DNA of 46,512 nt, taken from positions 1 to 46,512 of the forward strand of contig JAQBQV010000005.1 of NCBI GenBank assembly GCA_028286825.1, written 5' to 3'. The DNA is from Parcubacteria group bacterium (GTDB lineage: Bacteria; Patescibacteriota; Minisyncoccia; Phycocordibacterales; Phycocordibacteraceae). The first letter of the stretch is position 1. Each line of letters starts with the position of its first letter. A program made the position numbers and the translations under genes. Positions 6,112-42,934 of the stretch are shown here, in pieces. The notes under the pieces are model-generated. The model saw only the letters and a list, made by a program, of their open reading frames with translations, was not told the origin of the DNA and made no database searches.

Positions 6112-6911
6112 CGAACGATTTGGGGCGTTGGGTCATAGTAATCATTGTCGCCGGGGCGTCAGCGGGTGGACTCTACTATGAATATCAGAGCATGCGGCCG
6201 TGCGTACGTCCGGTTGAATATGCAATTGGAGCAGTCGATCCGCGCTTTGGCGTCAGCACATCGACGCTTATGACTGAAGCGGCGCTTGCGGGAGCGATTT
6301 GGAACGAAGCAGCCGGTAAGTCGGTGCTCGTTTATGATCCCGAGGCCAAGATGAAAATAAATTTTGTATATGATGAGCGTGAGGCTAATGCGAAGAAGGG
6401 AAGTCAGATAACCCTTGAGCAAGATGCTCTTGATGCTGAACGTTCTCGAATCGATACTCTCGAAGCGCAGTTTAAGTCGAGACAAGACGCGTATAACAGC
6501 AGAGTCAAGATACTAAACGCTCGCGGCGGCGCAACGAAAGAGGAGGCAGTTCAGCTCGACGCGGAAAAGGCGTCGTTACAACAGCTTGCAAGCACAATAA
6601 ATTCGGGGGTAGCTAGCTACAACGCGGCCGTAAAAGCGCTAAATGGGACCGTTAATGAGTACAATAGAAGCGCCGGCCGCACCTTTGAAGAAGGTCAGTA
6701 CGTGCGCGACTCCGCTGGCGAGCGTATCAATATTTTCGAATTTATCGGGACGACACAACTCGAACGGGTTTTGGCACATGAGTTTGGCCACGCGATTGGC
6801 CTTGACCATAATGACAATCCAAAGTCGATTATGGCGGCAAAGAACGAGAGCGGTAACTTGGTCCCGACCAAGGACGACCTGGCCGCACTCGCCACCCTCT
6901 GTGGGGCTTAA
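6108..6911 (+). CDS. Matrixin-like (M10-type) zinc metalloprotease with coiled-coil insert
   Basis: N-terminal TM anchor, HEFGHAIGLDH zinc motif and a SIM Met-turn. Confidence 0.85.
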   Translation: MTNDLGRWVIVIIVAGASAGGLYYEYQSMRPCVRPVEYAIGAVDPRFGVSTSTLMTEAALAGAIWNEAAGKSVLVYDPEAKMKINFVYDEREANAKKGSQITLEQDALDAERSRIDTLEAQFKSRQDAYNSRVKILNARGGATKEEAVQLDAEKASLQQLASTINSGVASYNAAVKALNGTVNEYNRSAGRTFEEGQYVRDSAGERINIFEFIGTTQLERVLAHEFGHAIGLDHNDNPKSIMAAKNESGNLVPTKDDLAALATLCGA

Positions 6912-6940
6912 AAGCTGAGGGGATTAATGCTAAAGTCTAG

Positions 6941-6967
6941 AAACTGGAGGCTTCGGCCTCCAGTTTT
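6941..6967 (+). terminator. Perfect hairpin with a UUCG tetraloop abutting the tRNA 5' end
   Basis: AAACTGGAGGC-TTCG-GCCTCCAGTTT(T). Confidence 0.6.
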
Positions 6968-7040
6968 GGGGGATCGTCTAATGGTAGGACACCAGCCTTT
7001 GAAGCTGAGAATCTTGGTCCGATTCCAAGTCCCCCAGCCA
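6967..7040 (+). tRNA. tRNA-Gln (anticodon UUG), CCA encoded
   Basis: Acceptor stem TGGGGGA/TCCCCCA, D-arm GTC-TAATGGTAG-GAC, anticodon loop CT-TTG-AA, T-arm CTTGG-TCCGATT-CCAAG, and a GCCA end. Confidence 0.95.
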
Positions 7041-7058
7041 ATCGCCTATACTACGTAC

Positions 7059-7685
7059 ATGAATAAAATCGGGGAAGGGTACTACTACACTGTATACGAA
7101 ATGAGTCCAACTCGAGTGATGAAAAAAGAAACAAGTTATGAGAGTAAACTTGCGAAGCTTCAGAGTTGGTATGGGAATGATTCGCGGTTACTCGAAGAGA
7201 AAATATCTCACCTCGAAGAATCGTCGAAAAAGTCAATTGCACTTTCAAAACGACTTGCAGAGACGCCAGAGTTAAAGGCTGTATTAGGTAATCCTATGTT
7301 CGTCAATGACAGTGAGTACGAACAAGACAAGGCCACGTTGTTGGAATCGTTTCTTGATCAGGAAAACTTCCTACCCTTGCTTCACGAATACATACAAGCA
7401 AACTTTCTGCTTTGGGCTTTTGGATATGGGGACGTCGTCCATAACTTTACTTTCAATGCAGGAGTATCAGTCGTAACTAACAAGGTTATACTTCTGGACT
7501 TCAATGAGCTAACGCAAGATAAGGAGTCAATAGCTAAAGATATTGAAACCCAAAAATGGACAAATCAGGCTTCAATGCTTGGGCTAAAGCGTAAGTACCC
7601 TGATTTATATTCCCAAGTGGAAGCGCTCTTCGGATCAGGTTTTAACATAGATAATGTAGACAAATATTGGGCTAGCCGTTGCTAA
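7059..7685 (+). CDS. Protein-kinase-like fold hypothetical protein (cassette 1)
   Basis: KIGEGYYYTVY Gly-loop-like start, VMKK, D-x(6)-N and LLDF. TATACT 6 nt before ATG 7059. The ORF-track extension overlaps the tRNA and is spurious. Confidence 0.6.
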   Translation: MNKIGEGYYYTVYEMSPTRVMKKETSYESKLAKLQSWYGNDSRLLEEKISHLEESSKKSIALSKRLAETPELKAVLGNPMFVNDSEYEQDKATLLESFLDQENFLPLLHEYIQANFLLWAFGYGDVVHNFTFNAGVSVVTNKVILLDFNELTQDKESIAKDIETQKWTNQASMLGLKRKYPDLYSQVEALFGSGFNIDNVDKYWASRC

Positions 7686-7713
7686 GTTTGTTCCAACATC
7701 GTCCCAGACGGCC

Positions 7714-7847
7714 AGCAGCTTAGTTTTAGTATCGAACGACCACGACAGGTCGAATATCTAAGCCGACAATTGGTAGGTGTCTAAAAGCGTCCTAGACGGA
7801 TCAAAAATCAGAAGTGAGTAAATAGGCTACAATTTTAGTTCGATTCC
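7714..7847 (+). repeat. 134-bp non-coding module, copy 1
   Basis: Ungapped match to 11371-11504 (110/134 by hand count). Confidence 0.9.
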
Positions 7848-7946
7848 AAGACGCCCGGTAGCAATTGACATTTAACCAAAAAGATATAATTTGCATTCAG
7901 GGGAATGTACAAAATCCAGATGGATAACTTTTTGACAGGAATACTC

Positions 7947-8522
7947 ATGAAAACATACGAGGTGGAAATCAAAGTTGAACATACGGAAAACCAGCGTCTC
8001 GAGTTACTCCAGAAATTTTTGGAGCTTTGTTTCGTTGATAATGGCGTCGTGTCGCAACAAGACCGCTACACCAAAGCAGTACTATCGCAGTACGGCGATC
8101 CTAAGGCGTTCGATATTGAGCGTTATCGCTCCGAAGACAGCAAGTTTTTCTTTACCAAGAAGGACTGGGAAGTAGAGGGCGGCAAGCCTGTCCGGAAGGA
8201 GGATGAGCGCGAAATAACGCGGAGGGAATTCGATGTAGCAATCGCCGGCCATCCCAATGCGCTCAAAATCATCAAAGACAGACACAGGTTCAAAGCATCG
8301 TTTGAAGGCATAGACATCAGCCTTTCAATCGACAGTGTGAAGTTCGACCACTCCCCCTCGGTGAGACACTTCATGGAACCAGAAATCCTCGTCGAAGATA
8401 AAGCCAGGGTGCAAGAGACGAAGGAGTTTCTTCGTCGATTTGTTTCATTCTTGCTGGATATACCAACGTCGCAGATAGTCGAAGCTCCCGGCATGTTCGC
8501 AATGGCATTCAAGAAGCTGTAA
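7947..8522 (+). CDS. CYTH-domain (triphosphate tunnel metalloenzyme) protein
   Basis: N-terminal EVEIK (ExExK), QQDRY, RKEDE, IIKDR, SIDSV and FMEPE. Alternative start at 7905. Confidence 0.75.
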   Translation: MKTYEVEIKVEHTENQRLELLQKFLELCFVDNGVVSQQDRYTKAVLSQYGDPKAFDIERYRSEDSKFFFTKKDWEVEGGKPVRKEDEREITRREFDVAIAGHPNALKIIKDRHRFKASFEGIDISLSIDSVKFDHSPSVRHFMEPEILVEDKARVQETKEFLRRFVSFLLDIPTSQIVEAPGMFAMAFKKL

Positions 8523-8627
8523 ATACCTGCTATGCCGAAAGACCGCATGGTTCGCCCAGCGGCCTTTTGTTTTGCCGTTCCAACGTCGTCCCAGACGGTC
8601 AGCCCGTAAAATTGCTACAATGTGCGT

Positions 8628-9050
8628 ATGGAAGACAAACACCTCGCCGCTGCAGTAGCAATACTTAAAAGTATTCACTATATAACGCTCGCCACCGTTT
8701 GTGAGGATGGCAGCCCCTGGAATTCTCCTGTGTCAGCAACTATAGACGCAGACTTAAATTTTAGTTGGGGTTCTAATGCAGACAATATCCACTCACAAAA
8801 CATTGGAAGAGATGGCCGGGTATTTGTGGTTATCTTTGATTCAAAGGCAGCTGAAGGAACAGGAGAGGGCTTATATCTTAAAGGCACAGCAGAAGAACTT
8901 GGACAGGAAAATGATTCTATTAATAAATACCGATTTATAGCAAATCAAGCCTGGGTTAATGACGAGGCTAAGAATGAGAATGGAAGCTATAAACACGACA
9001 TTCGTGTAGAGCTTAACTTGGATTCTTTGAAGGAATCGTTCTCTAAATAA
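8628..9050 (+). CDS. Pyridoxamine 5'-phosphate oxidase-like FMN-binding split-barrel protein
   Basis: YITLATVCEDGSPWNSPV, HSQNI and GLYLKGTA. TACAAT 6 nt upstream. Confidence 0.85.
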   Translation: MEDKHLAAAVAILKSIHYITLATVCEDGSPWNSPVSATIDADLNFSWGSNADNIHSQNIGRDGRVFVVIFDSKAAEGTGEGLYLKGTAEELGQENDSINKYRFIANQAWVNDEAKNENGSYKHDIRVELNLDSLKESFSK

Positions 9051-9103
9051 GTTCCAGCGTCGTCCCAGGCGGCCAGCAAATAAGAATTTTAAATTGTACT
9101 GAT

Positions 9104-9829
9104 ATGAAATTGATAACTCTCAATACATGGGGTGGCAGAATAGGAAAACCTTTCATCGAATTTATCAAAAGCCATCAAGATGTGGATATTTTCTGTTTTC
9201 AGGAGATATACGAAAATGCTAAAGAAGTAATGGAGGCTGTCTATCCAAATGACATGTTTGATCAGTTTTCTGATCTGCAAGAGTTACTGCCGCACCATCA
9301 AGGTTTTTTTAGGCCCGTCTTGCACGGAGTATATGGTATAGCGACTTTCATTAAAAAAGATATCTCGCTTATAGAAGAAGGAGAATTGTTTATTCATTAC
9401 TCAGCTAGCGAAACAATTACTGATGGCCATCACTCAAGAAATTTGCAGTGGGTTAAATTTAACTTAAACGGAAAAGTGTTTACTGTAATTAATGTTCACG
9501 GCTTATGGAATGGGAAGGGAAAATCTGATACTCCAGAAAGAATTGTGCAATCAAATGTAATTAAGGAGTTTATGAATAAAGCCGAAGGAGAAAAGATATT
9601 AGCTGGAGATTTTAATCTCAACCCTGATACCGAAAGCATCGACATTATTGCAAAAGGAATGAGGAATCTCATAACTGAGAATGCTATTACTTCTACTCGA
9701 ACAAGTTTGTATGAAAAGCAGGGTAAATTTGCAGACTATATCTTTATCTCACCGGATATCCATGTTAAAGACTTCAAGGTCTTGCCAGAAGAGGTTTCTG
9801 ACCATTCTGCTTTGTATCTGGAGATATAG
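9104..9829 (+). CDS. Endonuclease/exonuclease/phosphatase (EEP) family protein
   Basis: Motifs ITLN, CFQE, NVHG, AGDFN, DYIF and SDH. Confidence 0.93.
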   Translation: MKLITLNTWGGRIGKPFIEFIKSHQDVDIFCFQEIYENAKEVMEAVYPNDMFDQFSDLQELLPHHQGFFRPVLHGVYGIATFIKKDISLIEEGELFIHYSASETITDGHHSRNLQWVKFNLNGKVFTVINVHGLWNGKGKSDTPERIVQSNVIKEFMNKAEGEKILAGDFNLNPDTESIDIIAKGMRNLITENAITSTRTSLYEKQGKFADYIFISPDIHVKDFKVLPEEVSDHSALYLEI

Positions 9830-9884
9830 AGGTTCCCACGTCGTACCACGCGGCCAGCTCATACTTTTGTGCCATAATTAACTA

Positions 9885-10157
9885 ATGTTTGATTTGACTC
9901 TCGAGACGTTTTTGGAAGTCGTCTATCTGCTTATCGGTATTGCAGTTATATGGAATGTAATTAAGCGCTCAAGTAAATTTGCCGCTAAGCTACAAATATC
10001 TTATATAGAGCAATCGAAGAAAGGAATCATAAATCGTCCTGAACAGTTTGAGGGGAAGTTTTTCTTTATCATGCTTCGAATTGGAATAATCTTCTCCTCA
10101 TTTGTGCTGATGGGAATGGGATATTCAATTCTGTTCGGACCAATTATTCTTAATTAA
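9885..10157 (+). CDS. Small 2-TM membrane protein
   Basis: Two hydrophobic helices. CATAAT 6 nt upstream of the ATG. Confidence 0.7.
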   Translation: MFDLTLETFLEVVYLLIGIAVIWNVIKRSSKFAAKLQISYIEQSKKGIINRPEQFEGKFFFIMLRIGIIFSSFVLMGMGYSILFGPIILN

Positions 10158-10173
10158 TATCCAACTCAATGCT

Positions 10174-10350
10174 ATGTGGAAAAAAATAGTAACTTTTTTC
10201 AATAATCCTATAAGAAGATACTATCCCAACGGAGAGGAGATAATCGATCAAAGCCCTCGTGTTTCTATGATATGGAGCATTCCTATTATTCTAGGTGGCT
10301 CAGTGTTAGTTATTTTCTTATTATTACTCTTTTTTGCTTTCGCAGCTTAA
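10174..10350 (+). CDS. 58-aa protein with a C-terminal membrane anchor (below ORF-track cutoff)
   Basis: Hand translation MWKKIVTFFNNPIRRYYPNGEEIIDQSPRVSMIWSIPIILGGSVLVIFLLLLFFAFAA*. The stop lies 4 nt before a repeat copy. Confidence 0.6.
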   Translation: MWKKIVTFFNNPIRRYYPNGEEIIDQSPRVSMIWSIPIILGGSVLVIFLLLLFFAFAA

Positions 10351-10406
10351 TAAGGTTCCACGTCGTACCACAGAGCCACCTCGTAGGTTTTGTTATAATC
10401 ACAGCA

Positions 10407-10667
10407 ATGAAATGTCCGGAGATAACGATGGGATCAATTCTATTAGCGTTTTTCATTTATGTCTTGGCAGTAAGCATTTGGAATCAAAGACAGATAAGAA
10501 AAATTAGGAATGCCACGGGTGGGCTAATGGCTGGTACGGAAGCTGCGCTAAAAGCGCAAGAGCCAAAGGCAAGGGAGTTGCTGGTTGGCTTTTCTCCAAC
10601 AGAAGCCCTGTCAGGCATTGCCGCTGCGGCTACGCTGTTAAGCCTGTTCTATTCTATTTGTGACTGA
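10407..10667 (+). CDS. Small 2-TM membrane protein
   Basis: TGTTATAAT 7 nt before ATG 10407; lies between two repeat copies. Confidence 0.65.
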   Translation: MKCPEITMGSILLAFFIYVLAVSIWNQRQIRKIRNATGGLMAGTEAALKAQEPKARELLVGFSPTEALSGIAAAATLLSLFYSICD

Positions 10668-10719
10668 TGTAAAAGGTTCCCACGTCGTACCAGACGGCCA
10701 TCAGATTAATTTCCAAACC

Positions 10720-11241
10720 ATGAGGTCCTTACTAAGAAAAACTTTTTTGATTCAATCAATCATAGGCAGCTTCATACTCTTACTCACTATTTTTGCTGGA
10801 ATTGCAGATGCAAAAATAACTGATATTAATGCTGAGGTTTTGCAAAAACAAAATCTAGCAAATAACTATTTGATTTTAGCGCTTGGCGCACAAGAAGCAC
10901 ATAACACATACTCTATGTATGTCCCACTAGGAATACAAATAAATCCGCAAACTTTCGAAAGAGCCCCGCAAATCGATTCCAACCCTAAATTAAAGAATGA
11001 TGCAGATAAATTTTATACTGGGACCATATCGAGTTCACAATACTTAACCGAATACGTCAGCTATTTATCAGATGAGTACGCACGCAATTCAGAGACGTAT
11101 AAAGCAGCGGTGTCCGAACTTAATTTAATCTCTAAAAACGGGAGTCCCTGGTCACTCTGGAAAAATATTTTTCTCTTCCTTCAAATCACTTTAATCCTAG
11201 GTTCGATCCTGATCGGCATACGATCTTCAGTGACTAAATAA
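10720..11241 (+). CDS. Membrane protein with two TM helices and an extracytoplasmic helical loop
   Basis: TM-loop-TM pattern; ATG 19 nt after a repeat; the stop abuts the next repeat. Confidence 0.7.
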   Translation: MRSLLRKTFLIQSIIGSFILLLTIFAGIADAKITDINAEVLQKQNLANNYLILALGAQEAHNTYSMYVPLGIQINPQTFERAPQIDSNPKLKNDADKFYTGTISSSQYLTEYVSYLSDEYARNSETYKAAVSELNLISKNGSPWSLWKNIFLFLQITLILGSILIGIRSSVTK

Positions 11242-11295
11242 GTTCCCACGTCGTACCAAGCGGCCAGCAATCTGGAACAAAGACGTGTTTAAGAA

Positions 11296-11368
11296 TCGAA
11301 CCAGCTTTTATACAAGAGAGATCCATATTCTAGCCCGCAGTACTAGACCTAGTGACATTCCTAGAGCA
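11296..11368 (+). repeat. 73-bp CTAG-rich non-coding module, copy 1
   Basis: Ungapped match to 15917-15989 (63/73 by hand count). Confidence 0.9.
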
Positions 11369-11370
11369 TC

Positions 11371-11504
11371 AGCAGTCTAGTTTTAGTATCGAAGGACCAC
11401 GACAGGTCGAATATTTAGACCGCCGTTTGGCAGGCGTCTAATAACGTCCCAGAGGGGTCAAAAATCATGAGTGAATATATAGGCCGCATATTTAGTTCGA
11501 TTCC
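11371..11504 (+). repeat. 134-bp non-coding module, copy 2
   Basis: Ungapped match to 7714-7847. Confidence 0.9.
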
Positions 11505-11599
11505 TATTCGAGTCACAACATCAGAAATCTATATTGTTTTATAAAACGGTTCCCACATCGTACAACACGGCCACACAATTTATGTGTCATAATTAAAGC

Positions 11600-12478
11600 A
11601 TGACTGCCAACGAAAAAATTTCAGTTACGCAACAGGACATACTTGGTGCATATAATAGAAAAGAATACGGCTGGTTCGCTTTGTACATATTGGCAGTTGT
11701 GCTGGCCTCACGATTGGCCGGTGTTTTTGGGGTCGTTGTTTCAGTAATCGTAGTCGCGGCTTTGTATAAGACTCTTAAAAATTCCAAATTTTCAAAAAAG
11801 AAAAAAGTAACTCTTTCTCTTGCTTATATACTTGGCGGAATGGTTGGAACAATTGTAGGAGTTTATCTTCTTTCGAGTGCTATCTATAATCTTTGGCCTC
11901 AAGCATATATCGCCAGCGTACTTTCAAATGATCCCAAAGTCTCTAATGCTGATTTTGTAAGTAGCTCAACTCCGAACTTAGCGTCAAACACGACAACCCG
12001 CGACACAAGTGAAGTTAGTCTAAAATACATTGATGCAAAGTGGAAATTTTCAATTAATTATCCAAAGACATGGACAGTGGACATGAGTGGTACAAATGGG
12101 GATGTCGAATTCGATAATCCTACCGCGGATGACGTAGCCCTTGAAACCATCTCAGTTGGTTTAGCTGATAGCTATACACCAGAGACATATTCCCAGGCCG
12201 TGATGCATAACTTTAAAGTTTCAGGAGATGAAAATTCAAATATTAAAATTATTTCTGAGGGAAGAACGACATTAGGAGGTAATCCCGCCTATGAATATGA
12301 AGTCATCTACAATTATGTAAATTCAGGTAAGAACTATCCATTCCACGGAATTTACATTACTTCCATATTCAATAACTTGGGATACACGATTTTTGCGTCA
12401 TCCTTTGAGACTACTTGGGCTCAAAATATTCAGCTCTTTAATTCTTCGATTGAGTCCTTCACATTTTCGACCCAATAA
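11600..12478 (+). CDS. Membrane protein with a C-terminal PsbP/DcrB-like domain
   Basis: Three N-terminal TM helices, a Ser/Thr linker, YIDAKWKFSINYPKTW, TTLGGNPAYEY, and a terminal FNSSIESFTF. Confidence 0.7.
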   Translation: MTANEKISVTQQDILGAYNRKEYGWFALYILAVVLASRLAGVFGVVVSVIVVAALYKTLKNSKFSKKKKVTLSLAYILGGMVGTIVGVYLLSSAIYNLWPQAYIASVLSNDPKVSNADFVSSSTPNLASNTTTRDTSEVSLKYIDAKWKFSINYPKTWTVDMSGTNGDVEFDNPTADDVALETISVGLADSYTPETYSQAVMHNFKVSGDENSNIKIISEGRTTLGGNPAYEYEVIYNYVNSGKNYPFHGIYITSIFNNLGYTIFASSFETTWAQNIQLFNSSIESFTFSTQ

Positions 12479-12535
12479 AAGTTGCCATGTCGTACCACGC
12501 GGTCACATAGCGTTTTTTGTGTTTATATAGTTAAT

Positions 12536-12790
12536 ATGGAATTTGCTCACGTCTACAATATCTGTGGATCGCTCATCGCAATAGCAATTGGGATACTGAT
12601 CCTTACTTTCCCTAAACAAGCATTAGAAAAACAAAGAAAAACTATTATAAAACTTGCGAAGGCACTACCGTCCATTTATACGAAGGCACTCACAAAAACA
12701 GAGCGGCAGATTATGAGGGATAATTTCGTAGTCGCTTGCGGATTAGTTGGTATTGGATTTTTTGGACTAATTATCAGTTTTTCTAGCTAG
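12536..12790 (+). CDS. Small 2-TM membrane protein
   Basis: Two hydrophobic helices; bounded by repeat copies. Confidence 0.65.
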   Translation: MEFAHVYNICGSLIAIAIGILILTFPKQALEKQRKTIIKLAKALPSIYTKALTKTERQIMRDNFVVACGLVGIGFFGLIISFSS

Positions 12791-12945
12791 TAAGATTCTC
12801 ACGTCGTACCACGCGGTAATTCACTCAGCTATACTTAGGTTATGTTTTCTTGCATACCATCTCAAACCAGATAAAGCAGCTCCAGAAAACAATTAACAGT
12901 TCGAGATTAAGCAACTCGAAAAGCAACTAATGTTAGAATGTAACC

Positions 12946-13314
12946 ATGAACCAGATGGACTACTTTGAATACGGACTAATCATAGGGGCAACAATATTTT
13001 TCTTATTTCTAGGTTTGAAGTATTTTGATTATTGGAAACAGGTAAAGAAAGGATTTTTAGAATCTGGGATCAAATGGCCTCTTGATTCACAGGCTGAACT
13101 TAACGAAACGGCTCGTACAGATCTTCCTGGAGGTTACCAGATGATGGGAGGGAATATGGCTCAAGCTGCAAAAATAGTTTTCTCAATGCGGACTGATAAT
13201 CCTGCGATTCTCAAACCACTTCGCGGAATGCGTCGTATCTTACTTGCAGTTGTTTTGATCCCAATTCTGCTTGCTATTGTATTAGTTATTACATTCGGTT
13301 TCTTTGCCATCTAA
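12946..13314 (+). CDS. Small 2-TM membrane protein
   Basis: TGTTAGAAT 6 nt before the ATG; hydrophobic helices at both ends. Confidence 0.7.
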   Translation: MNQMDYFEYGLIIGATIFFLFLGLKYFDYWKQVKKGFLESGIKWPLDSQAELNETARTDLPGGYQMMGGNMAQAAKIVFSMRTDNPAILKPLRGMRRILLAVVLIPILLAIVLVITFGFFAI

Positions 13315-13523
13315 ACGACTGTTGTACTCAACCATACTGATTCGCTTTTCTTCAAAAATTTTCCTCCTCCCTTTTCCAAACCTATCCGAGCCTAGTATTG
13401 GGAAGGTTATCCGGAACTCAATTCTCGCTATAGAAGTAGTCTGATCCATATCCTCGTACGCTTTGAGTCGGACTGGTACCGATCCGCATAACTCAGCTTG
13501 GGATTACATGCTAACTTTTAAGG

Positions 13524-14102
13524 GTGACTCAAAATTCCAGTGATCCCTCAGAAAAGGATCTAGTACATGCTGCTCGCAAGGATCCTGAGGCGTTTGCGGC
13601 TATTGTCGCGCGATATGATGAGAGACTTCGTCGCTACATTGTGCGATTAGGATTGCTTGATGCTGACGCAGTAAAGGACGTACTCCAGGAGGCATTCATT
13701 AAAACCTATATACATCTGAACGATTATGACTCCTCGCTTCCATTAAGCGCGTGGCTGTATCGTATAGCAAGAAATGAAACCATGAGTCATTTCCGCAAAC
13801 AGCGGAATCGTCCACATTCGGTCGAATATAGTGAAGATACGGAACAGTTCGAAAAGATTGCCGATGAGCTTGATATCGAACATGAGGCAAATGCATCTAT
13901 TGATCAGGCTGCCGTCCGGGCTGCACTGAATACTCTTGATTTGAAGTATCGCGAAATCCTCATACTTAGATACTTCGAAGAAAAGAGCTATGAAGATATA
14001 GCAGCTATTCTTTTAATACCCATGGGTACGGTAGGCGTATACTTGAATCGAGGAAAAAAGTTGCTCAAGATTGCACTAAAAAGATACGATACGCAGAACT
14101 AA
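13524..14102 (+). CDS. ECF-type RNA polymerase sigma factor
   Basis: Region 2 (DVLQEAFIK...WLYRIARN) and region 4 (YREILILRYFEEKSYEDIA...GTV...RGK). Confidence 0.93.
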   Translation: MTQNSSDPSEKDLVHAARKDPEAFAAIVARYDERLRRYIVRLGLLDADAVKDVLQEAFIKTYIHLNDYDSSLPLSAWLYRIARNETMSHFRKQRNRPHSVEYSEDTEQFEKIADELDIEHEANASIDQAAVRAALNTLDLKYREILILRYFEEKSYEDIAAILLIPMGTVGVYLNRGKKLLKIALKRYDTQN

Positions 14103-14103
14103 T

Positions 14104-14577
14104 ATGAACTCCCCCGACACATTCTCGCAAGACATAGTCCGAAAGATCGAGGCGCGAGGCGTTGTGCCTAAGCCGCGCTGGTATTTTCTCGCGAGTCGCA
14201 GTGCATTGTGGTTCTTGGCCATCGGCTCGGTCGTGATCGGCGCAATCGCGTTTGCCATTGCGGATTTTGTCTTCCTAGACAATGACGGCATTTCGAAACT
14301 TCAAGGCTCATCTATCCAAGATGTTGCGGAAGCTATCCCTTTCGTATGGCTTGCTGGGCTTGCTCTGTTTACGGTAAGTGCATACTACGCTTTTAGACAC
14401 ACTCGCGGTGGCTACAAATATCGGACGGCGACCATTGTCTTTGTAATGGTGCTTCTCAGTATTGGGCTCGGGCTTATTTTGAACGCTTATGACTTTGGTC
14501 AACATATCCACGCATTCATTCTCCACATCACTTCACCAGGTGCTGCATTACCAACTGGAAGCGAAGGCATGGACTAG
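14104..14577 (+). CDS. Membrane protein, probable anti-sigma factor
   Basis: Starts 1 nt after the ECF sigma gene ends; three TM helices. Confidence 0.6.
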   Translation: MNSPDTFSQDIVRKIEARGVVPKPRWYFLASRSALWFLAIGSVVIGAIAFAIADFVFLDNDGISKLQGSSIQDVAEAIPFVWLAGLALFTVSAYYAFRHTRGGYKYRTATIVFVMVLLSIGLGLILNAYDFGQHIHAFILHITSPGAALPTGSEGMD

Positions 14578-15073: not shown

Positions 15074-15913
15074 ATGTCTATCTCAACTGCTGACTGGAAG
15101 AATGTCCTTAACAAAGTGCCAGAGGTTACTTTGTACTTCTGGATTATTAAAGTCCTCTGCACCACCGTCGGTGAGACAGCCGCTGACTATCTCAATACAA
15201 CTTTAAATTTAGGCCTCAATGGGACGTCGCTTGTAATGAGTGTTCTTCTTATCATTGTTCTCTTCTTTCAATTCAAATCTAAAAAGTATATCCCGTCGAT
15301 CTACTGGCTTTCTGTGGTTCTTATTAGTGTGGTCGGTACGCTTATCACCGACAATCTGACTGATAATCTCGGCATATCACTTCAGACAACGACTATAGTA
15401 TTTGCTCTCATGCTCGCTGCCGTATTCGGCGTTTGGTATGCGGTTGAAAAGACACTTTCGATGCATTCGATTGTTACCTTGCGTCGTGAGGCCTTCTACT
15501 GGCTCGCTATTTTATTCACCTTTGCTCTAGGAACTGCAGCAGGAGATCTTACCGCTGAGCAATTTGGCCTCGGATATCTCACTTCACTGCTTATCTTCGC
15601 CGGCCTCATCATGCTCGTGACAGCAGGGCATTACCTGGCGAAGAAAGTCTTAGTCACTGAACATAAAAACGCATTACGAAACGCCGTTCTCGCGTTCTGG
15701 CTCGCTTACATCTTGACTCGTCCACTTGGTGCCTCTATTGGCGATTATCTCTCTCAAGACCAAAGCAGCGGTGGCCTCAGTCTCGGCACTACCGTTACGA
15801 GTCTCATCTTCCTCGGCGCCATTCTTGCCCTCGTTATCTACCTCACGCTTACGAGAAAGGATCAAACACCTACCTCGTTGCTTGAGGCCGATCTTGCTGA
15901 AGAACCTATTTAG
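15074..15913 (+). CDS. COG4705 / DUF347-repeat integral membrane protein
   Basis: NKVPEVTLYFWIIKVLCTTVGETAAD, REAFYWLAILFTFALGTAAGD and AYILTRPLGASIGD. Confidence 0.88.
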   Translation: MSISTADWKNVLNKVPEVTLYFWIIKVLCTTVGETAADYLNTTLNLGLNGTSLVMSVLLIIVLFFQFKSKKYIPSIYWLSVVLISVVGTLITDNLTDNLGISLQTTTIVFALMLAAVFGVWYAVEKTLSMHSIVTLRREAFYWLAILFTFALGTAAGDLTAEQFGLGYLTSLLIFAGLIMLVTAGHYLAKKVLVTEHKNALRNAVLAFWLAYILTRPLGASIGDYLSQDQSSGGLSLGTTVTSLIFLGAILALVIYLTLTRKDQTPTSLLEADLAEEPI

Positions 15914-15916
15914 GAC

Positions 15917-15989
15917 TCGAACCAGCTTCTATACAACGGCTATCTATATTCTAGGCCTCAGTACTAGGCCTGGTGACATTCCTAGAGCA
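15917..15989 (+). repeat. 73-bp CTAG-rich non-coding module, copy 2
   Basis: Match to 11296-11368; starts 3 nt after the upstream stop codon. Confidence 0.9.
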
Positions 15990-16104
15990 GCGGCAAATAA
16001 TTTGTGCGAAAGGACTAAAGTTACATGTATACGCAAACTCGGCACAAAGCTCCGTAGTGACGGCCAGCCACGTAACAACTGGGTTTGATATACTGCGGAA
16101 GCAT

Positions 16105-16929: not shown

Positions 16930-17082
16930 ATGAATAATAATGAAATGGGAGGTCATTCAGAAATAGAAGACTTGGAGAAGACAGTACATGCTGCTGGCTA
17001 CGCGACGGCTGACCAGACAGAAATGGAACCACAATCAGACGTAGTGGTTACTGAAGAAGAGGGTGAAGAGGGCGCAGTGTAA
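16930..17082 (+). CDS. 50-aa acidic microprotein
   Basis: Hand translation MNNNEMGGHSEIEDLEKTVHAAGYATADQTEMEPQSDVVVTEEEGEEGAV*. TGATATAAT 7 nt upstream and its own terminator. Confidence 0.7.
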   Translation: MNNNEMGGHSEIEDLEKTVHAAGYATADQTEMEPQSDVVVTEEEGEEGAV

Positions 17083-17093
17083 TTATCAAACTC

Positions 17094-17122
17094 AACAAAA
17101 GCCGCCCAAAGCGGCTTTTGTT
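17094..17122 (+). terminator. Intrinsic terminator
   Basis: AACAAAAGCCGC-ccaaa-GCGGCTTTTGTT. Confidence 0.8.
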
Positions 17123-17233
17123 ATTTCTGAACGAATGCCGTCATGCCTATCCTCCATAGACATTAGAATGCTGACGCTAACGTACCATTCAGAAAAGTAG
17201 GTGCAAAACCGAATGCCTGTTATACTCCAGCTT

Positions 17234-17368
17234 ATGGATACAAATGATACAGAAGTAAAGGTAGAAGTTACTGAGGGCGAAGTCCCTGAGTCGGGTGCCG
17301 CAGTAGAGACAGAAGTGGAGCCAGCTGCAGACGCAGTTGTAGAGACAGAAGAAGCGGAGACCGTTTAA
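17234..17368 (+). CDS. 44-aa acidic microprotein, paralog of 16930-17082
   Basis: Hand translation MDTNDTEVKVEVTEGEVPESGAAVETEVEPAADAVVETEEAETV*. TGTTATACT 7 nt upstream and its own terminator. Confidence 0.7.
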   Translation: MDTNDTEVKVEVTEGEVPESGAAVETEVEPAADAVVETEEAETV

Positions 17369-17380
17369 TAACCCGAATCG

Positions 17381-17408
17381 ACAAAAGCCGCCTAAAAGCG
17401 GCTTTTGT
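17381..17408 (+). terminator. Intrinsic terminator (near copy of 17094-17122)
   Basis: ACAAAAGCCGC-ctaaaa-GCGGCTTTTGT. Confidence 0.8.
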
Positions 17409-17532
17409 TATTTATGAAAGAATGTCACCTGCAGTTCGTCTGAGCTTGTAGGGAAGAAGAGTATATACTTAGCTGTATAGTGCGTGCTCCGCACACTTAC
17501 AAGCTCATGATTCCTTATCTTTATATCTATTT

Positions 17533-26656: not shown

Positions 26657-29428
26657 ATGGAATCCTCGCCCAAGTTGTCCACGCCAGAAGAGGAGCTCGC
26701 GTATCTGCGCGAACAAGTTTCTCGCAAGGAAGCCGAGCTATCAAAGCGCAATGTCGAGGCAAATGCGTTTGATCACGTGAGAGTCATTTCTGAGACGATC
26801 CACGAACACCATGCTGCTCCACTCGAGGTGCTAGCCAAAGAGTATCAAAGCACTGAAAAGACGATCGATACACAGGCTGAAGCGATCCTCAAAGAGCTTA
26901 ACCTAGGCGGTACCGAAGAAGCGGTGAAGAAGCTCCAGGCAGTTATGGAGGAGAAGGGGGTAAAAAATGCTCTAAGTGTTATGGAGAAACTGCACGATCC
27001 CCATGTGGCTGATGACTTCCATCAGTATCTCGTGCGTCATATTGCTGCGGGGATTCTTGTGCCCGGAATCGACGAGAAGGCACCTCGTTTCCAGGCGCTT
27101 CACATGACGCTATATGAAATCGCACTCCCAGAGCCTAAGCACGAGGAGGGGGGCCGCACAAAGACGCTCAAAGAGCTTGTCTCGGGAATGGAACAGTTCT
27201 ATGCGGGACTGCTCTCAGTTGAGGACGCGGAAGCGGGCGAGCCACCTTACTTTGCACTTGAATTAGCCGTGCCTGAGGACCGCCCTGAGCTCCAGTTTTA
27301 TGCCGCAGTGCCTAATAGTAAGTGCAATTTGTTTGAGAAGCAGCTTCTTGCGATCTTTCCCAATGCGCACCTTGTTGCACAACCACACGACTATAATGTG
27401 TTTACTAACAGCGGTATTTCCTACACCTCAACAGCAACGTTAGCCGCTAATCCGGCGCTTCCGCTGAAGGACTATACTGAGTTTGATTATGATCCGATCA
27501 ATGCGATAACCAATGCCTTCGCCAAGATCGAACACACAGGCGAAGGGGCAGCGCTCCAGATTATTATCGAGCCAAGAGCCGAACGGCATGTAAAGCATTA
27601 CCAGAAAATTTTGCATGCGCTCCGAAAGGGAGAAAAGCATACGACGGCCTTTAGTACGCCTGAGACCATGATGGGTGAAGTGGTTCGCGACATCGGTAAG
27701 TCCCTCTTTTCGAGCAAGCCTAAAGACGAACAGAAAGCAAAGGAGGCAGAAACGCGTCAGATAGAAGCGAACAAAGCGCATATCGAGCAGCTCGAGAAGA
27801 AAATAGCTGCACCCATTGTTGGAGTCACCATCAGACTGGTTGTCTCTTCTACCGACGAGCGTAAGGCAGGGCAGGTGCTCGACGAGATTGAGGCCGCGTT
27901 TAATCAGTTTGCGAGTACGCAAGGCAACCACCTTTCATTTAAGCGTACTCCGATGGGCGATAAAGCCGATGCGGCTTTTGAAAAGTTCTCGTTCCGCTTG
28001 CCGGACTCAAATGCACTCCCGCTCTCGCTTCGCGAACTCACGACCATCTACCACTTCCCGCCGTCTGGAATCGAATCCTCTCCGCACTTAAAGCAGGCGC
28101 GCTTTACCCATGCTCCAGCACCGGTCGCGCTCCCACAGACCGGTTCATTGCTTGGTATTAATACGTATCGTGGTCAAGAATCACGGATCTATCTGAGTCC
28201 TGAAGATCGCCTTCGCCACCTCTACATCATCGGGCAGACCGGTACCGGTAAGACCGGGCTCATGAAATCGATGATTATGCAGGATATAAAAAATGGCGAC
28301 GGCTGCTGCTTTATCGATCCGCACGGCTCAGACATTATCGATATCTTGGCCTCAATCCCGCCTGAGCGTTACCAAGATGTCATTTACTTTGACCCGGCTG
28401 ATCTTTCGCGGCCGCTCTCGCTTAATTTCCTCGAGTACGACATGTCTCGACCAGAGCAGAAGACATTTATTGTGAACGAACTTCTGATGATCTTTAAGCG
28501 CCTCTACGGTGACGTGCCTGAGAGTATGGGTCCCGCGTTTGAGCAGTACTTCCGGAACGCGACATTGCTCGTGATGGAAGATCCAAGCTCCGGATCGACG
28601 ATCCTCGACATTGCGCGCGTGCTTAGTAACAGCGAATTTAGAGCACAGAAGCTTGCAAAGAGTATGAACCCCATCGTGAATCAGTTCTGGACAGAGATCG
28701 CGACGAAGGCCGGAGGCGATGCGGCGCTTGAAAACATCGTGCCGTATATCACCAATAAGTTCGATGACTTTACGGCAAACGATTTCATTCGACCGATCGT
28801 CGGGCAACAGGAATCTTCCTTTAACTTCCGCGAAGTGATGGATACAAAAAAGATATTACTCGTAAACCTCTCGAAGGGCCGCTTAGGCGAGCGAAACGCA
28901 AACCTCCTCGGGCTGATCGTAGTGGGCAAGCTCTTTATGGCTGCGCTCTCTCGAGCCGACAATCCGCGCGGCCAACACGCACCTTTTTACCTCTACATTG
29001 ACGAGTTCCAAAACGTGACGACGGATTCGATCCCGGGGATTCTGTCCGAGGCCCGCAAATACAAACTTTCGCTCAGTATGGCGCACCAGTTCCTTTCGCA
29101 GATCGAGGAAAAAACACGTGACGCAGTCTTCGGGAACGTCGGCAATATGGCAGTCTTTCGTGTGGGTGAAGAGGACGCCGAGTTCTTTGCAAAGCAATTT
29201 GCTCCCGTATTTGAATCATCTGATTTCGTAAATCTTGAAAACCGAAACGCGTACGTAAAGATTCTTTCAAACGGCATACCGCAAAAGGCTTTTGACATGA
29301 AAACGCCTGATTTGCCGGAAGCAAATCAGGCTCAGGTAGACGACCTTATTCACCTCTCGTCGCTTACCTACGGTCGCGATCGTGCTACCGTTGAGAATAT
29401 GATCCGCGAACGATATCTCTCTCGTTAA
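26657..29428 (+). CDS. VirD4/TraD-like coupling-protein ATPase (HerA/FtsK superfamily)
   Basis: RHLYIIGQTGTGKT (Walker A), IDPHG, LYIDEFQN (Walker B), LSEARKY, AHQF and VFGNVG. Confidence 0.9.
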   Translation: MESSPKLSTPEEELAYLREQVSRKEAELSKRNVEANAFDHVRVISETIHEHHAAPLEVLAKEYQSTEKTIDTQAEAILKELNLGGTEEAVKKLQAVMEEKGVKNALSVMEKLHDPHVADDFHQYLVRHIAAGILVPGIDEKAPRFQALHMTLYEIALPEPKHEEGGRTKTLKELVSGMEQFYAGLLSVEDAEAGEPPYFALELAVPEDRPELQFYAAVPNSKCNLFEKQLLAIFPNAHLVAQPHDYNVFTNSGISYTSTATLAANPALPLKDYTEFDYDPINAITNAFAKIEHTGEGAALQIIIEPRAERHVKHYQKILHALRKGEKHTTAFSTPETMMGEVVRDIGKSLFSSKPKDEQKAKEAETRQIEANKAHIEQLEKKIAAPIVGVTIRLVVSSTDERKAGQVLDEIEAAFNQFASTQGNHLSFKRTPMGDKADAAFEKFSFRLPDSNALPLSLRELTTIYHFPPSGIESSPHLKQARFTHAPAPVALPQTGSLLGINTYRGQESRIYLSPEDRLRHLYIIGQTGTGKTGLMKSMIMQDIKNGDGCCFIDPHGSDIIDILASIPPERYQDVIYFDPADLSRPLSLNFLEYDMSRPEQKTFIVNELLMIFKRLYGDVPESMGPAFEQYFRNATLLVMEDPSSGSTILDIARVLSNSEFRAQKLAKSMNPIVNQFWTEIATKAGGDAALENIVPYITNKFDDFTANDFIRPIVGQQESSFNFREVMDTKKILLVNLSKGRLGERNANLLGLIVVGKLFMAALSRADNPRGQHAPFYLYIDEFQNVTTDSIPGILSEARKYKLSLSMAHQFLSQIEEKTRDAVFGNVGNMAVFRVGEEDAEFFAKQFAPVFESSDFVNLENRNAYVKILSNGIPQKAFDMKTPDLPEANQAQVDDLIHLSSLTYGRDRATVENMIRERYLSR

Positions 29429-29431
29429 TTT

Positions 29432-32400
29432 ATGGCACAAAAAAATGGTGAAGAAATGGGTATTGAAAAATTTCAGACACGCCGTCGCTCAGAAGCAGTT
29501 AAAAACGCTACTGACGTCGATGTGCAAACAGAAAATCGAACCTATGATGAACTCAAGTCACGTCTTGAGACCGCTTTTTTTGAAACGTACCCAGAGCCAG
29601 ACATGTCTGTTCCAGAGCAAAAGCAGCTTTACAACAAACTATCCGCTCTGAGAAAAGAATTGGCCAAGTCCATCAACCAACCGGCAAAAACGAGAAGTCT
29701 CGAAAACGTAAAAGCCCAGATTGACGCTTTTAGAGAGGAGTTAAAGCCGGCACAAACTGTGGTAAACGCCCAAATGACAGAAAGCGTTGTCCCTGAAGCC
29801 AGCGTTACTCAGCCTCAAGAGGCTAAACCGTTCAACCCTCATTCTGTAGCCTCTATACAGACCGTAGAAGAGCAACAGAAAAATTTGGAAGGTAGAAAAC
29901 ACGCGGCTGTACTCGGAATCATTCCGCCAGTGTCGATAAATGACCTCGATATAGATATTACTCACGCTCGCACTCCGCAGTATATGACTCGTCCCGAGAT
30001 GCAAAAGGACATGGATGCGTGGGCGGCCGGTTCTATTGCACCGACACAAACAGAGCATTCAGAATTTTCAGCACCAGAGGCGTTGACGGCATTATTTAGC
30101 GGCCACGTGCCCGCTCAGGTTTTAGAGGTGTATTCAAAATTGAAAGATCAAAAAAAGCAAGAAAGTTATCTTGAATCGCTTCGAAAGGAAATCGATGAAG
30201 AGAAGAAAGCCTCAGCTGTTGTGCAAGAGTGGGAACGGCAAGGGCCGACTGAACTCGGCAATCCGTGGGGCCGAGGTGGCTTGAAAAGAGGAATATTTAG
30301 AGAACAGCTTTTGAGTCTCTATCCGCCAAACCCAGACGGCACTCGGGATGCTAAACACATTTCGGAATCAGACTGGAGAAAATACGAAGACCTTGCAGAA
30401 GAACAGCAGAAGAACTTTGCTTCAGGAGACGAAGGAGCAGAGGAGGCGACACTTGAAAAGATTGCTCAGTTTCTGCTTGAGCCAAAAGTCCCCATTACTG
30501 ATGAGGCTGTTCTAGTGCCGACTGCCGAGCGAGTATTAAATGGAAGTTCTCATGAGACCATCTCAGACAAGGAGAACGGAGAGATGGCACAATCGGAAGA
30601 ATCCAATTTTCAAGATATAGGAAAAACCGTAAATATAGATTCCGATTCGAGCAGCGCTCATTTAAGTCTTGAGCTAGCAAAAGAATTTTTGAAGCTTGGT
30701 GATAGAGATACGGCCGAGCAGTATTTACAAGAAGTAATTGCAGAAGGGGATGATACTGAGAAAGCAGAAGCGCTAACTCTTCTCGGGAAAGCGGGTCACC
30801 ATGAGTCGGTAGAGACTGCCCCTAAGGTCTTCCACTTTAGGCCAGGTCATGAGAAAAATATTCCAGAAGACGCCGTTTTTTCAGACGGATCACCGCTTAA
30901 CCCAGAGCCGCGGCAAATTCCTTCTTCTGAGTCACCTAAGGAGCAGACCCAGAATGAGCAGCCGGAAACACCTAAGGAGTGGAAGGCAAAATTGCGTGAG
31001 CTCATTAGCGGAGCCAAGGACAGCACCAAAGAAAAGGTGAATTGGTATAAAAGCTCGGAAGAGGGTCTCATTCGCCGTTCTGCCGAACTGGATCTTAAAG
31101 CAGAGAACATTGGCGGGATTGAAAAATGGTTTAGAAATGTTGGCGAGAACTATAATAAGAAAAGTTTTACGACTAAGCTTGCCATGGGTGCAGGCCTCGG
31201 GCTAGGAGCATTCGCTTTTTCTACTATTGCACCTCCTGTTGCGGCAGCGTTCATGCTGGGTCTCGGCTATCAGCGCACCGCAGCGCTTTCGACAATGTTC
31301 TTAAAATTTGAGAAAAAGGCAGTCGACGACAAAAAAACCAATGCGAAAGAGTGGTCGATGTTGAAAGCGATAGGCTATACAGTAGCAATGGGTGCAGCGA
31401 TACAAGAAGCGCTGTTACTCGCCAATCAGACGGAAACCGGACAAAAAGTACATGAGTATATTGGAGAAAAAGCTCAAGTCGTCGGTGAAAAGACTCAAGA
31501 ATGGCTGAAGCAGTACTGGCCATTCAAGGGTGGTGTAAAACCCGAAGGGACGTGGGCAGAATCAACACCGGGGAATCCCTCGAACCTGTCGCCACAACCA
31601 CAAAAGCATCCTGAGATTACGTCGAGCGGGAAGCTACTGAATGACACAAATATTTCGGAGAGGATAGAAGGGGAGATTGCTCTCCCTGATGACCTTGAGC
31701 CCATTGCGGCGACAAAAGGAAAGGGTACAGAGTATATGATCAAGAGAATGTGGAAGCAGCTTTCGGAAAAGCATCTAGATGCAAGTAGCTATTACGATGC
31801 TGAACGCGCTCCTGATCAGCAACCAGACATATACAAACTTCTTACCGCAGATGAGGAAACAATTGATAAAGTCGTGCATAAAATCGCTGCTGACCCAAAG
31901 CACGGCTTCTATCACCCAGGCGGTACCAATGCGCGCGTTGATCTCGACTCAGTAATGTCTTTTGACACACACGGAGAGATAACGCTCGATGGAATGATGG
32001 AAACGCCAAATGACGGACCGATAACACCGCCATACAACCATGCCGCGAATGCAGAGAACCCTGCAATATCAGATGAGACTAGTGACGACGGTTTTCAGCG
32101 CGTTTCAGCAACTGATGAGTCATTCCACATACAAGAGCAGCTTGAGCGCGACTCGATCGGCGAACCTAGACCCATTAATGGAGGTGCCCCTGAAGGTCTT
32201 CAGGATGCAGATTCTATAGGAACTCAAGATTCAACTACATCGTCTGCTCCTGAGAGTGGCACAATCGAAAATCAGCCATCTCTCCCACAGACAAAGGAAT
32301 TTCTTAGTGATAGCGGACTAAAGATAGAACCTCGAGAGGGACATGTGTTTGTCGAAAAGGGAAGTGGTGTTCCAGTTGCGTATGGAGAACCCTTTGAAGC

Positions 32401-42861: not shown

Positions 42862-42934
42862 GGGCCGTTAGCTCAGTTGGTAGAGCACCTCATTTGCAAT
42901 GAGGGGGTCGCAGGTTCAAATCCTGTACGGTCCA
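42862..42934 (+). tRNA. tRNA-Ala (anticodon UGC), CCA not encoded
   Basis: Acceptor stem GGGCCGT/ACGGTCC with G3-U70, anticodon arm CCTCA-TTTGCAA-TGAGG, and T-loop TTCAAAT. Confidence 0.96.

Follow-up and report, generated by a model that had tools for sequence, protein, structure and literature searches.

Behind a tRNA-Gln gene of a Parcubacteria group bacterium (GTDB family Phycocordibacteraceae; assembly GCA_028286825.1, contig JAQBQV010000005.1), a short repeat recurs on the same strand, with genes between its copies. What are these repeats, and how did the genes come to lie between them? The window analyzed here is the whole stretch of 46,512 nucleotides (nt) at positions 1 to 46,512 of this contig. 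The repeat array extends from the end of tRNA-Gln(TTG) at 7040 to about 12.8 kb, where ten same-strand sites bound single-gene cassettes. An earlier note on this DNA, made from the sequence without database searches, proposed that the tRNA 3′ end is the primary, attI-like insertion site and that the repeats are cassette attachment (att) sites. This core proposal is supported by comparative evidence to which its author had no access. We consider it likely that this array is part of an integron-like system of gene cassettes that occupies multiple loci.

Two kinds of site are distinguished: type C is the cassette site, and type I is the tRNA-Gln 3′ end or an isolated 23-nt copy of it. Comparison with related genomes establishes the two site types, the cassette topology, the polarity of the arrays, the self-expression of the cassettes, and a patchy spread over the genus.

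Array heads, cassettes and sites

The type I consensus in relatives, GGTTCGATCCCTAGTCT[C/G]CCAGC, corresponds to the last 23 nt of tRNA-Gln(TTG), and in the window it is the real end of that gene. Arrays lie behind tRNA-Gln(TTG) in five relatives (G125, G166, G102, G086, G018) and behind tRNA-Gln(CTG) in two (G082, G162). Two genomes of a sister genus contain a minimal unit composed of tRNA-Gln, one open reading frame (ORF), and a type C site (G049 with the TTG and G041 with the CTG anticodon). At tRNA-free loci, arrays are headed by an isolated 23-nt type I copy on the same strand, 230-790 nt upstream of the first repeat; one isolated copy is located 7 nt past a tRNA-Pro. The expectation that homologous arrays would always start at a tRNA was borne out for the heads formed by tRNA-Gln(TTG) or tRNA-Gln(CTG), and not for those formed by isolated copies of the tRNA-Gln 3′ end. 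The earlier note had named the same repeat at non-tRNA loci as evidence against its proposal. Such loci exist in the literal sense only; they bear a stand-alone mimic of the tRNA-Gln end.

Upstream of the clusters, a same-strand type I site with at most 4 mismatches is present in 20 of 33 cases, and one with 5-7 mismatches in 6 more. The other 7 clusters either consist of a single site or lie at the edge of a locus or contig. In an enlarged set including 133 metagenome loci, a type I site was found in 40 of the 60 clusters having enough upstream sequence. The reversed type I sequence, used as a control, gave 0 matches in 626,564 nt on both strands. Among the 12 genomes with at least three type I-like matches, 11 have at least four type C sites; in the 20 listed genomes that lack type C sites, the type I-like pattern matches once or not at all. 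A single genome can contain up to about 11 heads.

A partial second tRNA copy, extending from the D-arm to the 3′ end, was observed directly after tRNA-Gln(CTG) of one relative (G162; L061:1613-1695). It ends in ...GTCTGGCAGC, which is nearer to the type C tail, and looks like a hybrid att product.

To locate cassette boundaries, 295 unique cassette bodies were compared, 254 following type C and 41 following type I sites, and 12 pairs were found to share at least 150 nt. Two pairs combine the two contexts: L034 (after type I) and L391 (after type C) have a shared body of 626 nt with 96.8% identity, and L037 (after type I) and L367 (after type C) one of 329 nt with 88% identity. In another pair, L401 and L406, a common cassette has unrelated upstream neighbours. 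Homology in these three pairs begins at the first base past the upstream ...GCCAGC (or ...GCCACC), spans the downstream type C site, and stops 0-3 nt beyond it. These limits indicate that a cassette owns its 3′ type C site and that the exchange point is the 3′ edge common to type I and type C.

The arrays are polar. Mismatches to the consensus become more numerous along the array, from 1.26 for the first-ranked site to 3-5.5 for ranks 7-10 counted from the head (Spearman 0.40, p 2e-6, 19 arrays), a trend that fits cassette entry at the head. We also observed that guanine-cytosine (GC) skew, taken in array orientation, is positive for 18 of the 24 flanks upstream and 21 of the 27 downstream (28 loci, mean +0.03); the arrays thus tend to point with the presumed leading strand.

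Cassette anatomy was analyzed in 119 units between consecutive sites, taken from the loci of 20 relatives and the two arrays of the window's own genome. The units have a median length of 549 bp (range 182-2104) and contain one ORF each, which starts approximately 45-55 nt from the site start and stops 0-8 nt upstream of the next site. In 35 of the 119 the longest ORF is reversed, and there the site orientation is unchanged. Relative to the ATG, the 56 forward cassettes examined display TG at -15/-14 and TAnAnT at -12 to -7, without a Shine-Dalgarno sequence; the resulting extended -10 box (TGnTAnAnT) lies 6-7 nt upstream of the ATG. This spacing indicates, as a prediction, that forward cassettes have an extended -10 promoter and produce leaderless mRNA. 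The distance between site and -10 box is variable, and that between -10 box and ATG is fixed. Reversed cassettes have their own promoter and a GGAGG motif beside the downstream site, and some forward cassettes have an intrinsic terminator right before the site. Because cassettes bring their own promoters and some bring their own terminators, the site itself is neither. A role of the repeat as a promoter or as an element for an extracytoplasmic function (ECF) sigma factor was considered separately and rejected, given the wrong spacing by eye (20 nt from AAC to CGT) and the variable distance to the -10 box.

With respect to cargo, only 11 similar pairs occur among 116 cassette ORFs, and 65 of 97 ORFs are without a Pfam family. 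The remainder encode NUDIX, HAD, methyltransferase, GNAT, SDR, histidine phosphatase, DUF218, S51 peptidase, cupin, MazG, and similar proteins. No recombinase or integrase fragment was detected by Pfam among the 97. The cassettes of sister genera carry the same cargo mix.

The type C logo, A.AAAG-GTTCCAACATCGTCCCAGACnGCCAGC-AA, describes an asymmetric site of 27-33 nt in which only position 21 is free and a second conserved box is absent; it derives from 158 copies gathered at up to 6 mismatches, so that its apparent conservation is inflated. On inspection by eye, position 21 seemed genome-specific in the listed copies. No pair covariation was detected in the 158 copies, and no Rfam match was obtained for the repeat element. 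One variant, GTTCGAATATCG..., was examined as a possible end of another tRNA and dismissed, as ARAGORN finds no tRNA at its locus.

When up to 2 mismatches were allowed, a degenerate 24-nt pattern was found in 64 of 201 genomes of the family; 57 of these are among the 163 genomes of the genus and 6 among the 37 of two sister genera, and there were 0 control matches. It reveals several site clusters per genome, on either strand. A sequence-only covariance model identified sites in 63 of 150 other sampled genomes of the genus, with up to 26 per genome. Applied to a phylum-wide sample, the same model returned merely single weak partial matches in 4 of 150 genomes, and the site family was not credibly found elsewhere in this sample outside the GTDB family.

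Viral contigs were scanned in two ways. The 19-nt core gave at least 120 matches, none with a type C tail; 111 carry the flank signature of a C5-methyltransferase and the other 9 look similar. A more specific second pattern gave 6 GC-rich matches, all without the 5′ half of the site. The matches in alphaproteobacterial and Myxococcus genome contigs all lie in one methyltransferase coding sequence (VWDDVGTF...GYPCQ) and were likewise discarded. Since about 9 chance matches are expected for the pattern in 596 Gb by our own estimate, they were judged a chance match to one widespread gene. The coincidence itself can be described precisely: the reverse complement of the 20-nt repeat core equals part of the coding sequence of a C5 DNA methyltransferase, a conserved stretch that encodes VWDDVGTF and precedes GYPCQ (loci L067-L141 from genomes, L211-L330 from viral contigs). 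The gene with this match occurs in Rhodobacterales, other Alphaproteobacteria, Myxococcus, and many viral contigs.

The array in the window and its surroundings

The genome containing the window is 675 kb in 24 contigs and 70% complete. Its tRNA-Gln(TTG) gene occupies 6967-7040 on the forward strand (ARAGORN; Rfam tRNA, 58 bits) and reads ...TTCCAAGTCCCCCAGCCA at its 3′ end. The same-strand repeats previously reported behind it are real: ten 27-nt copies start at 7690, 8577, 9051, 9832, 10354 (degenerate), 10676, 11242, 11549, 12481, and 12795 (+), with the consensus GTTCC[A/C]AC[G/A]TCGT[C/A]CCA..CGGCCAGC. A window search with up to 3 mismatches recovered 4 copies, compared with 0 in 100 shuffles. 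The copies have the stop codon of a forward-strand ORF a few bases upstream and the next start codon 18-28 nt downstream. The first unit does begin directly after the CCA of the tRNA, as had been noticed, with a TATACT box and an in-frame ATG (7059) at the same distance from the tRNA end as from the repeats. The last ~23-25 nt of the tRNA (7016-7040) are supported as 'site zero', an attI-like type I site.

All ten cassettes are listed here on the forward strand. Cassette 1 (7041-7716) comprises the TATACT box, a predicted leaderless ORF at 7059-7685 (208 amino acids, without a Pfam family), and a type C site at 7690-7716; a Pfam scan of its stretch 7101-7685 returned 0 families, and no relatives of it were found among metagenome contigs. 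Cassette 2 (7717-8603) has a TTGACA/TATAAT-like promoter, an ORF at 7905-8522, and a type C site at 8577-8603. It is associated with a 146-nt non-coding element (7702-7847) in which the core of a decayed type C site and a remnant resembling type I (7837-7859) can be recognised. Cassette 3 (8604-9077) contains a TACAAT box at 8616-8621, an ATG at 8628 opening a PNPOx-like ORF that extends to 9050, and a type C site at 9051-9077. An ORF of the endonuclease/exonuclease/phosphatase family (9104-9829) and a type C site (9832-9858) form cassette 4 (9078-9858). Cassette 5 (9859-10380) encodes a small membrane-like protein (9885-10157) and ends in a degenerate type C site (10354-10380) with a position weight matrix (PWM) score of 16.9.

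In cassette 6 (10381-10702), a TATAAT box precedes an ORF at 10407-10667 and a type C site at 10676-10702 that contains CGTC-N6-GACG. Cassette 7 (10703-11268) has an ORF at 10720-11241 and a type C site at 11242-11268. Cassette 8 (11269-11575) is without an ORF; ahead of its type C site (11549-11575), the 146-nt element recurs at 11359-11504 with 80% identity to its first copy. A 105-nt stretch after the 11242 site (11270-11374) was also seen to recur outside the array at 15891-15995 (79%). Both this recurrence and the 146-nt element are possibly recombination scars. Cassette 9 (11576-12507) combines a CATAAT box, a PsbP-like ORF at 11600-12478, and a decayed type C site at 12481-12507 (PWM score 18.1). 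The distal end of the array is cassette 10 (12508-12821), with an ORF at 12536-12790 and a strongly decayed last site at 12795-12816.

GC content is 37-45% in the array versus 49-53% in both flanks. The flanking genes are housekeeping genes, namely DprA, SerRS, Dus, and DnaX on one side and UvrABC and Ddl beyond the array. No recombinase was found in the window by Pfam scan. Just past the distal array end, at 13524-14577, there is an ECF-type sigma factor gene (13524-14102; Sigma70_r2 and r4_2), followed by an ORF of 157 amino acids without a Pfam family.

A second array in the same genome occupies the start of contig C8 (C8:1-7059). Across the genome, the site pattern matches 18 times in the forward and 0 times in the reverse direction, with 0 control matches, and a PWM scan finds 19 sites scoring at least 14, the 99.99th percentile of the background being -11.8. 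Contig C23 stops exactly at tRNA-Gln(CTG) (C23:10798-10869), and the beginning of contig C8 falls within the second array. Since arrays follow tRNA-Gln(CTG) in relatives, C23 and C8 probably adjoin; no k-mer overlap was found between them, and their adjacency remains a guess.

Three other features of the window were noted outside the array. At 43224-46179, just after tRNA-Ala (42862-42935), a SIR2_2-domain protein (357 amino acids) is followed by a HerA/DUF87 ATPase (634 amino acids), which looks like a SIR2-HerA anti-phage defence pair. The region 26657-32641 encodes a VirD4/TraG-like coupling ATPase (923 amino acids) and a protein of 1069 amino acids without a Pfam family, which suggests a type IV secretion or DNA-transfer module. 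In addition, a non-coding stretch between ORFs at 17015-17424 contains a tandem duplication of ~287-292 nt.

Recombinase, mechanism and alternative explanations

No dedicated integrase was found. The genome has a single Phage_integrase match, an XerA/XerD-like tyrosine recombinase of 306 amino acids encoded at about 4.5-5.4 kb of contig C1. This Xer-type protein scores 126.4 bits on the integron-integrase model TIGR02249 (cut-off 265) and 76.2 on NF011946 (cut-off 435), and passes the XerA-type model NF040815 (237.9 versus 220). The genome is without an integron integrase (IntI), its sole tyrosine recombinase being far below the cut-offs. An Xer-type gene is present in every genome checked, that is, the own genome and 5 of 5 relatives, and is the only recombinase found in all of them. 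In two array-rich, near-complete genomes (G022, G166), tyrosine recombinases are limited to one Xer-type gene, and the same holds for the array-free genome G002. No gene family recurs beside arrays beyond what synteny explains, the Y1-like ORF of G022 has no homologue in the own genome, and the surroundings of xer in 7 loci show no conserved dif-like motif.

Some neighbourhoods of individual arrays were recorded in passing. In one metagenome contig (L383), an array lies between xer and its usual neighbour and ends 16 nt from the xer stop codon, which we treat as an anecdote and not as evidence. Reverse transcriptase genes occur a few hundred bases from type C sites in two metagenome contigs (L361:2300-3586, L379:139-831), with no group II intron RNA match at either gene, and another is present in one of the 5 genomes checked (G166:C5:42641-43195).

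A mechanism can be proposed. A site-specific recombinase acting in trans would exchange strands within the last bases common to type I and type C (CTGCCAGC / CCAGC). The type C site of a cassette would recombine with a resident type I or type C site, in the manner of attC x attI or attC x attC. Circularised cassettes would be inserted next to the type I site, and older ones pushed distally, where their sites decay. That the cell's single Xer-type tyrosine recombinase operates the system is a tentative and somewhat doubtful assignment; otherwise, a recombinase that is unrecognised or extrachromosomal would be responsible. A classical double-strand mechanism of the tyrosine or serine type is disfavoured by the missing inverted arms, and a one-sided or single-strand reaction would fit better.

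Several results weigh against a site-specific cassette system. For 20 of the 60 clusters, there is no recognisable type I site within 1.2 kb. No recombinase linked to the arrays was found in their flanks, and the Xer-type gene is also present in array-free genomes (e.g. G002). Among five array-rich genomes, serine recombinases occur in 3, Y1 transposases in 1, IS110 in 0, and reverse transcriptases in 1, so that no classical family is present in all. Neither inverted arms nor a hairpin were seen at the sites: DNA folding of all 8 window sites tested (70 nt, bottom strand) gave z-scores of -0.88 to +1.40 relative to shuffles, with no hairpin potential. Sites without inverted arms or a hairpin are unusual as substrates of tyrosine or serine recombinases. 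The boundary mapping draws on a handful of shared cassettes, the 12 pairs among 295. No excised circle or strain-level insertion or deletion was observed, the sole sequencing run with window DNA being the probable source sample, available as contigs. Where contigs of this soil metagenome cover 6800-13500, each joint falls on repeats and leaves fewer than 30 nt to one side; such joints stem from other arrays or organisms and are neither for nor against excision. Finally, the resemblance between tRNA and repeat reaches a local score of 9, which 187 of 5000 shuffles also attain against tRNA-Gln.

This last result concerns the evidence from which the tRNA link was originally drawn. The quoted 'proximal repeat', TTCCAACGTCGTCCCAGACGGCCA, proved to be a composite of the 7690 and 8577 copies; the former has A at repeat position 9 and the latter reads GGTCA. 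The printed alignment, given as 16 of 18 tRNA bases with two gaps, set 23 columns against 24, and corrected by hand it matches 17 of 18 tRNA bases at the cost of three gaps, 6 nt in all. The genome's other tRNAs reach a score of 8, and among 40 tRNAs at least one attains 9 or more in 348 of 500 shuffles. Taken alone, the resemblance is thus not above chance in the own genome. The genus consensus performs slightly better against relatives' tRNA-Gln (local score 10, reached by 41 of 5000 shuffles). The dyad described by the earlier note, CGTC-N6-GACG, is present at 8577 and 10676, and the idea of a conserved dyad with a 6-bp core fell away: it occurs in 6 of 18 copies in the own genome and 8 of 158 across the family, without compensatory changes, and is incidental. 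With alignment, dyad, and folding no better than chance or not conserved, the features behind the original inference are weak or incidental. The original observation holds in part, and the interpretation is partly supported, being right in substance for reasons other than those given.

A coincidence of synteny, which would make the array an ordinary variable island with a tRNA next to it by chance, would agree with the non-significant alignment in the own genome. We regard it as extremely improbable; it is already contradicted by the arrays behind tRNA-Gln(TTG) or tRNA-Gln(CTG) in seven genus relatives and two sister-genus genomes, by the isolated exact copies of the tRNA-Gln 3′ 23-mer that head arrays at non-tRNA loci, and by the empty reversed-sequence control. 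An element common to accessory genes and acting at the level of RNA or transcription, be it an operator, a terminator, or a processing signal resembling a tRNA (RNase P/Z punctuation), with arrays formed in some other way, is highly improbable. Its position 0-8 nt past a stop codon and ahead of the next gene, its loose likeness to the T-arm and acceptor 3′ end of tRNA-Gln, and the ECF sigma factor gene just past the array (13524-14102) would suit such a role. Yet the element does not fold above shuffles, has no Rfam match or pairing covariation, lies at a variable distance from the -10 box, follows some cassettes' own terminators, and keeps its orientation where the gene is reversed (35 of 119 cassettes). 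The type I heads and the cassettes common to both contexts would also be left unexplained.

It is improbable, too, that the system has no dedicated recombinase and that the sites are portable homology for cassette exchange between arrays and cells driven by RecA or natural transformation. The missing array-linked recombinase, a competence-type gene in the window (DprA, 560-1717), and the near-identity of sites across species would be consistent with it, as would homogenisation of position 21, judged genome-specific by eye. Against it stands the brevity of the overlap between the two site types: the stretch in common, about 8-9 contiguous bases (CTGCCAGC plus A), is too short for homologous recombination, yet the same cassette is found after either site. 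Base-precise cassette boundaries argue in the same direction, and the near-invariance of 27 nt and the polar array head are left unexplained. Tandem accretion of tRNA-targeting integrative elements, whereby integrase-bearing elements entered tRNA-Gln, decayed to single genes, and left att scars, is likewise improbable. Prochlorococcus offers a precedent, since its tRNA genes seed islands of transient integrase-carrying elements split by partial tRNAs (10.1101/2020.12.28.424599). The seeding of arrays at tRNA genes, the growth of site decay away from the tRNA end, and the existence of partial tRNA duplications (L061; 7827-7859 in the window) are in line with this model. It is opposed by the internal sites, which are of type C; resemblance to the tRNA end is confined to the first site. 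Likewise, the cassettes are uniform single-gene units with tight spacing, there is no integrase or fragment in the 97 cassette ORFs or in the array flanks, many arrays are headed by isolated 23-nt mimics away from any tRNA, and no type C site exists among the viral contig matches (at least 120 in the first scan, 6 in the second).

We return to the cassette-capture reading. In its broadest form, it proposes an undescribed gene-capture class in ultra-small Patescibacteria, with many tRNA-Gln-mimic heads, short non-hairpin sites, and leaderless cassettes, run by a moonlighting Xer-type or yet-unrecognised recombinase and serving as the main engine of accessory-genome turnover. We place this claim slightly short of an even chance. 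The host lineage has genomes of 0.6-0.8 Mb and is thought to be poor in mobile elements. If confirmed, the system would signify that cassette capture evolved or diversified beyond IntI, and would explain accessory-gene turnover in ultra-small symbiotic bacteria. It would also provide a 23-nt plus 27-nt substrate pair for finding the recombinase, possibly an Xer enzyme with a second job, and its compact leaderless cassettes and defined sites could serve as genetic-tool parts for Patescibacteria.

Comparison with known systems

Integrons, the standard example of gene capture, are defined by IntI and by attC sites that form hairpins; these sites measure ~57-141 nt and contain R''/L''-L'/R' boxes. 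The arrays described here resemble integrons in consisting of same-strand series of cassettes, mostly with a single gene and a few hundred bp long, each with one 3′ site. They also have a distinct array-head site, a crossover at the 3′ edge of both site types, and polarity with decaying distal sites, from which we infer entry next to the head. The cargo is similar as well (NUDIX, GNAT, HAD, glyoxalase, cupin, and many unknowns), and array GC is below that of the flanks. In contrast to integrons, the arrays are without IntI, and their sites are 27-33 nt, asymmetric, and non-hairpin. The head is the 3′ end of tRNA-Gln or a mimic of it, whereas integron attI lies beside intI, and there are up to about 11 heads per genome. 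The cassettes appear self-promoted and leaderless, whereas integron cassettes rely on the common Pc promoter. Searches based on hairpin attC sites would presumably miss these arrays, which constitutes a blind spot.

Xer/dif modules, such as the integrative mobile elements exploiting Xer (IMEX) and the pdif modules of Acinetobacter, borrow the host Xer to move DNA bounded by ~28-nt sites. In dif-type sites, a core of 6-8 nt is framed by two partly inverted arms of 11 nt each, and the orientation of pdif modules alternates. The site length of 27 nt and the Xer-type enzyme as sole recombinase in all genomes checked are reminiscent of these modules. Type C and type I sites differ in lacking such arms and in all facing the same direction; only 2-4 inner base pairs are complementary, and positions 9/20 and 8/21 are non-complementary in most copies. 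A CRISPR array was rejected on account of the spacing of 182-2104 nt, the one ORF per unit, and the lack of a CRISPR family above the Rfam threshold.

Two further systems are compared. The tycheposons of Prochlorococcus are multi-gene elements with their own tyrosine recombinase and ~40-nt partial-tRNA att sites at both ends (10.1101/2020.12.28.424599). Islands of this kind share with the arrays a tRNA seed at the proximal end, partial tRNAs as att sites, and hosts with streamlined genomes lacking the usual mobile elements; newer material lies by the tRNA there and probably also in the arrays. The units here differ in being single genes without an integrase, with type C internal sites and with heads that also include isolated 23-mers away from tRNAs. 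The combination that marks a tycheposon, an own integrase plus the same partial-tRNA repeat on both sides, is absent from the arrays. The rAID-1 clusters of Bacteroidales are gene arrays whose intergenic repeats are described as 'reminiscent of integrons', with GC skewed and a tyrosine recombinase of the XerD family (10.1101/471110). Integron-like repeats, skewed GC, and an Xer-family recombinase instead of IntI are common to both. As described there, rAID-1 has a recombinase gene conserved at the cluster head and immunity cargo, whereas the arrays here have a tRNA-like head, no recombinase gene at that position, and a cargo of mixed small enzymes and unknowns.

No published description of these arrays was found in the full-text literature on Saccharibacteria, Patescibacteria, Parcubacteria, and the candidate phyla radiation, a scope that leaves subscription journals outside, and the site core sequence gave no match there as a text word. 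The words 'integron', 'cassette', and 'tRNA' are absent from a paper on horizontal transfer in Patescibacteria. We do not file the arrays as integrons, because three defining features (IntI, hairpin attC, and attI beside intI) fail. They probably represent a cassette-capture system with two site types that is apparently undescribed.

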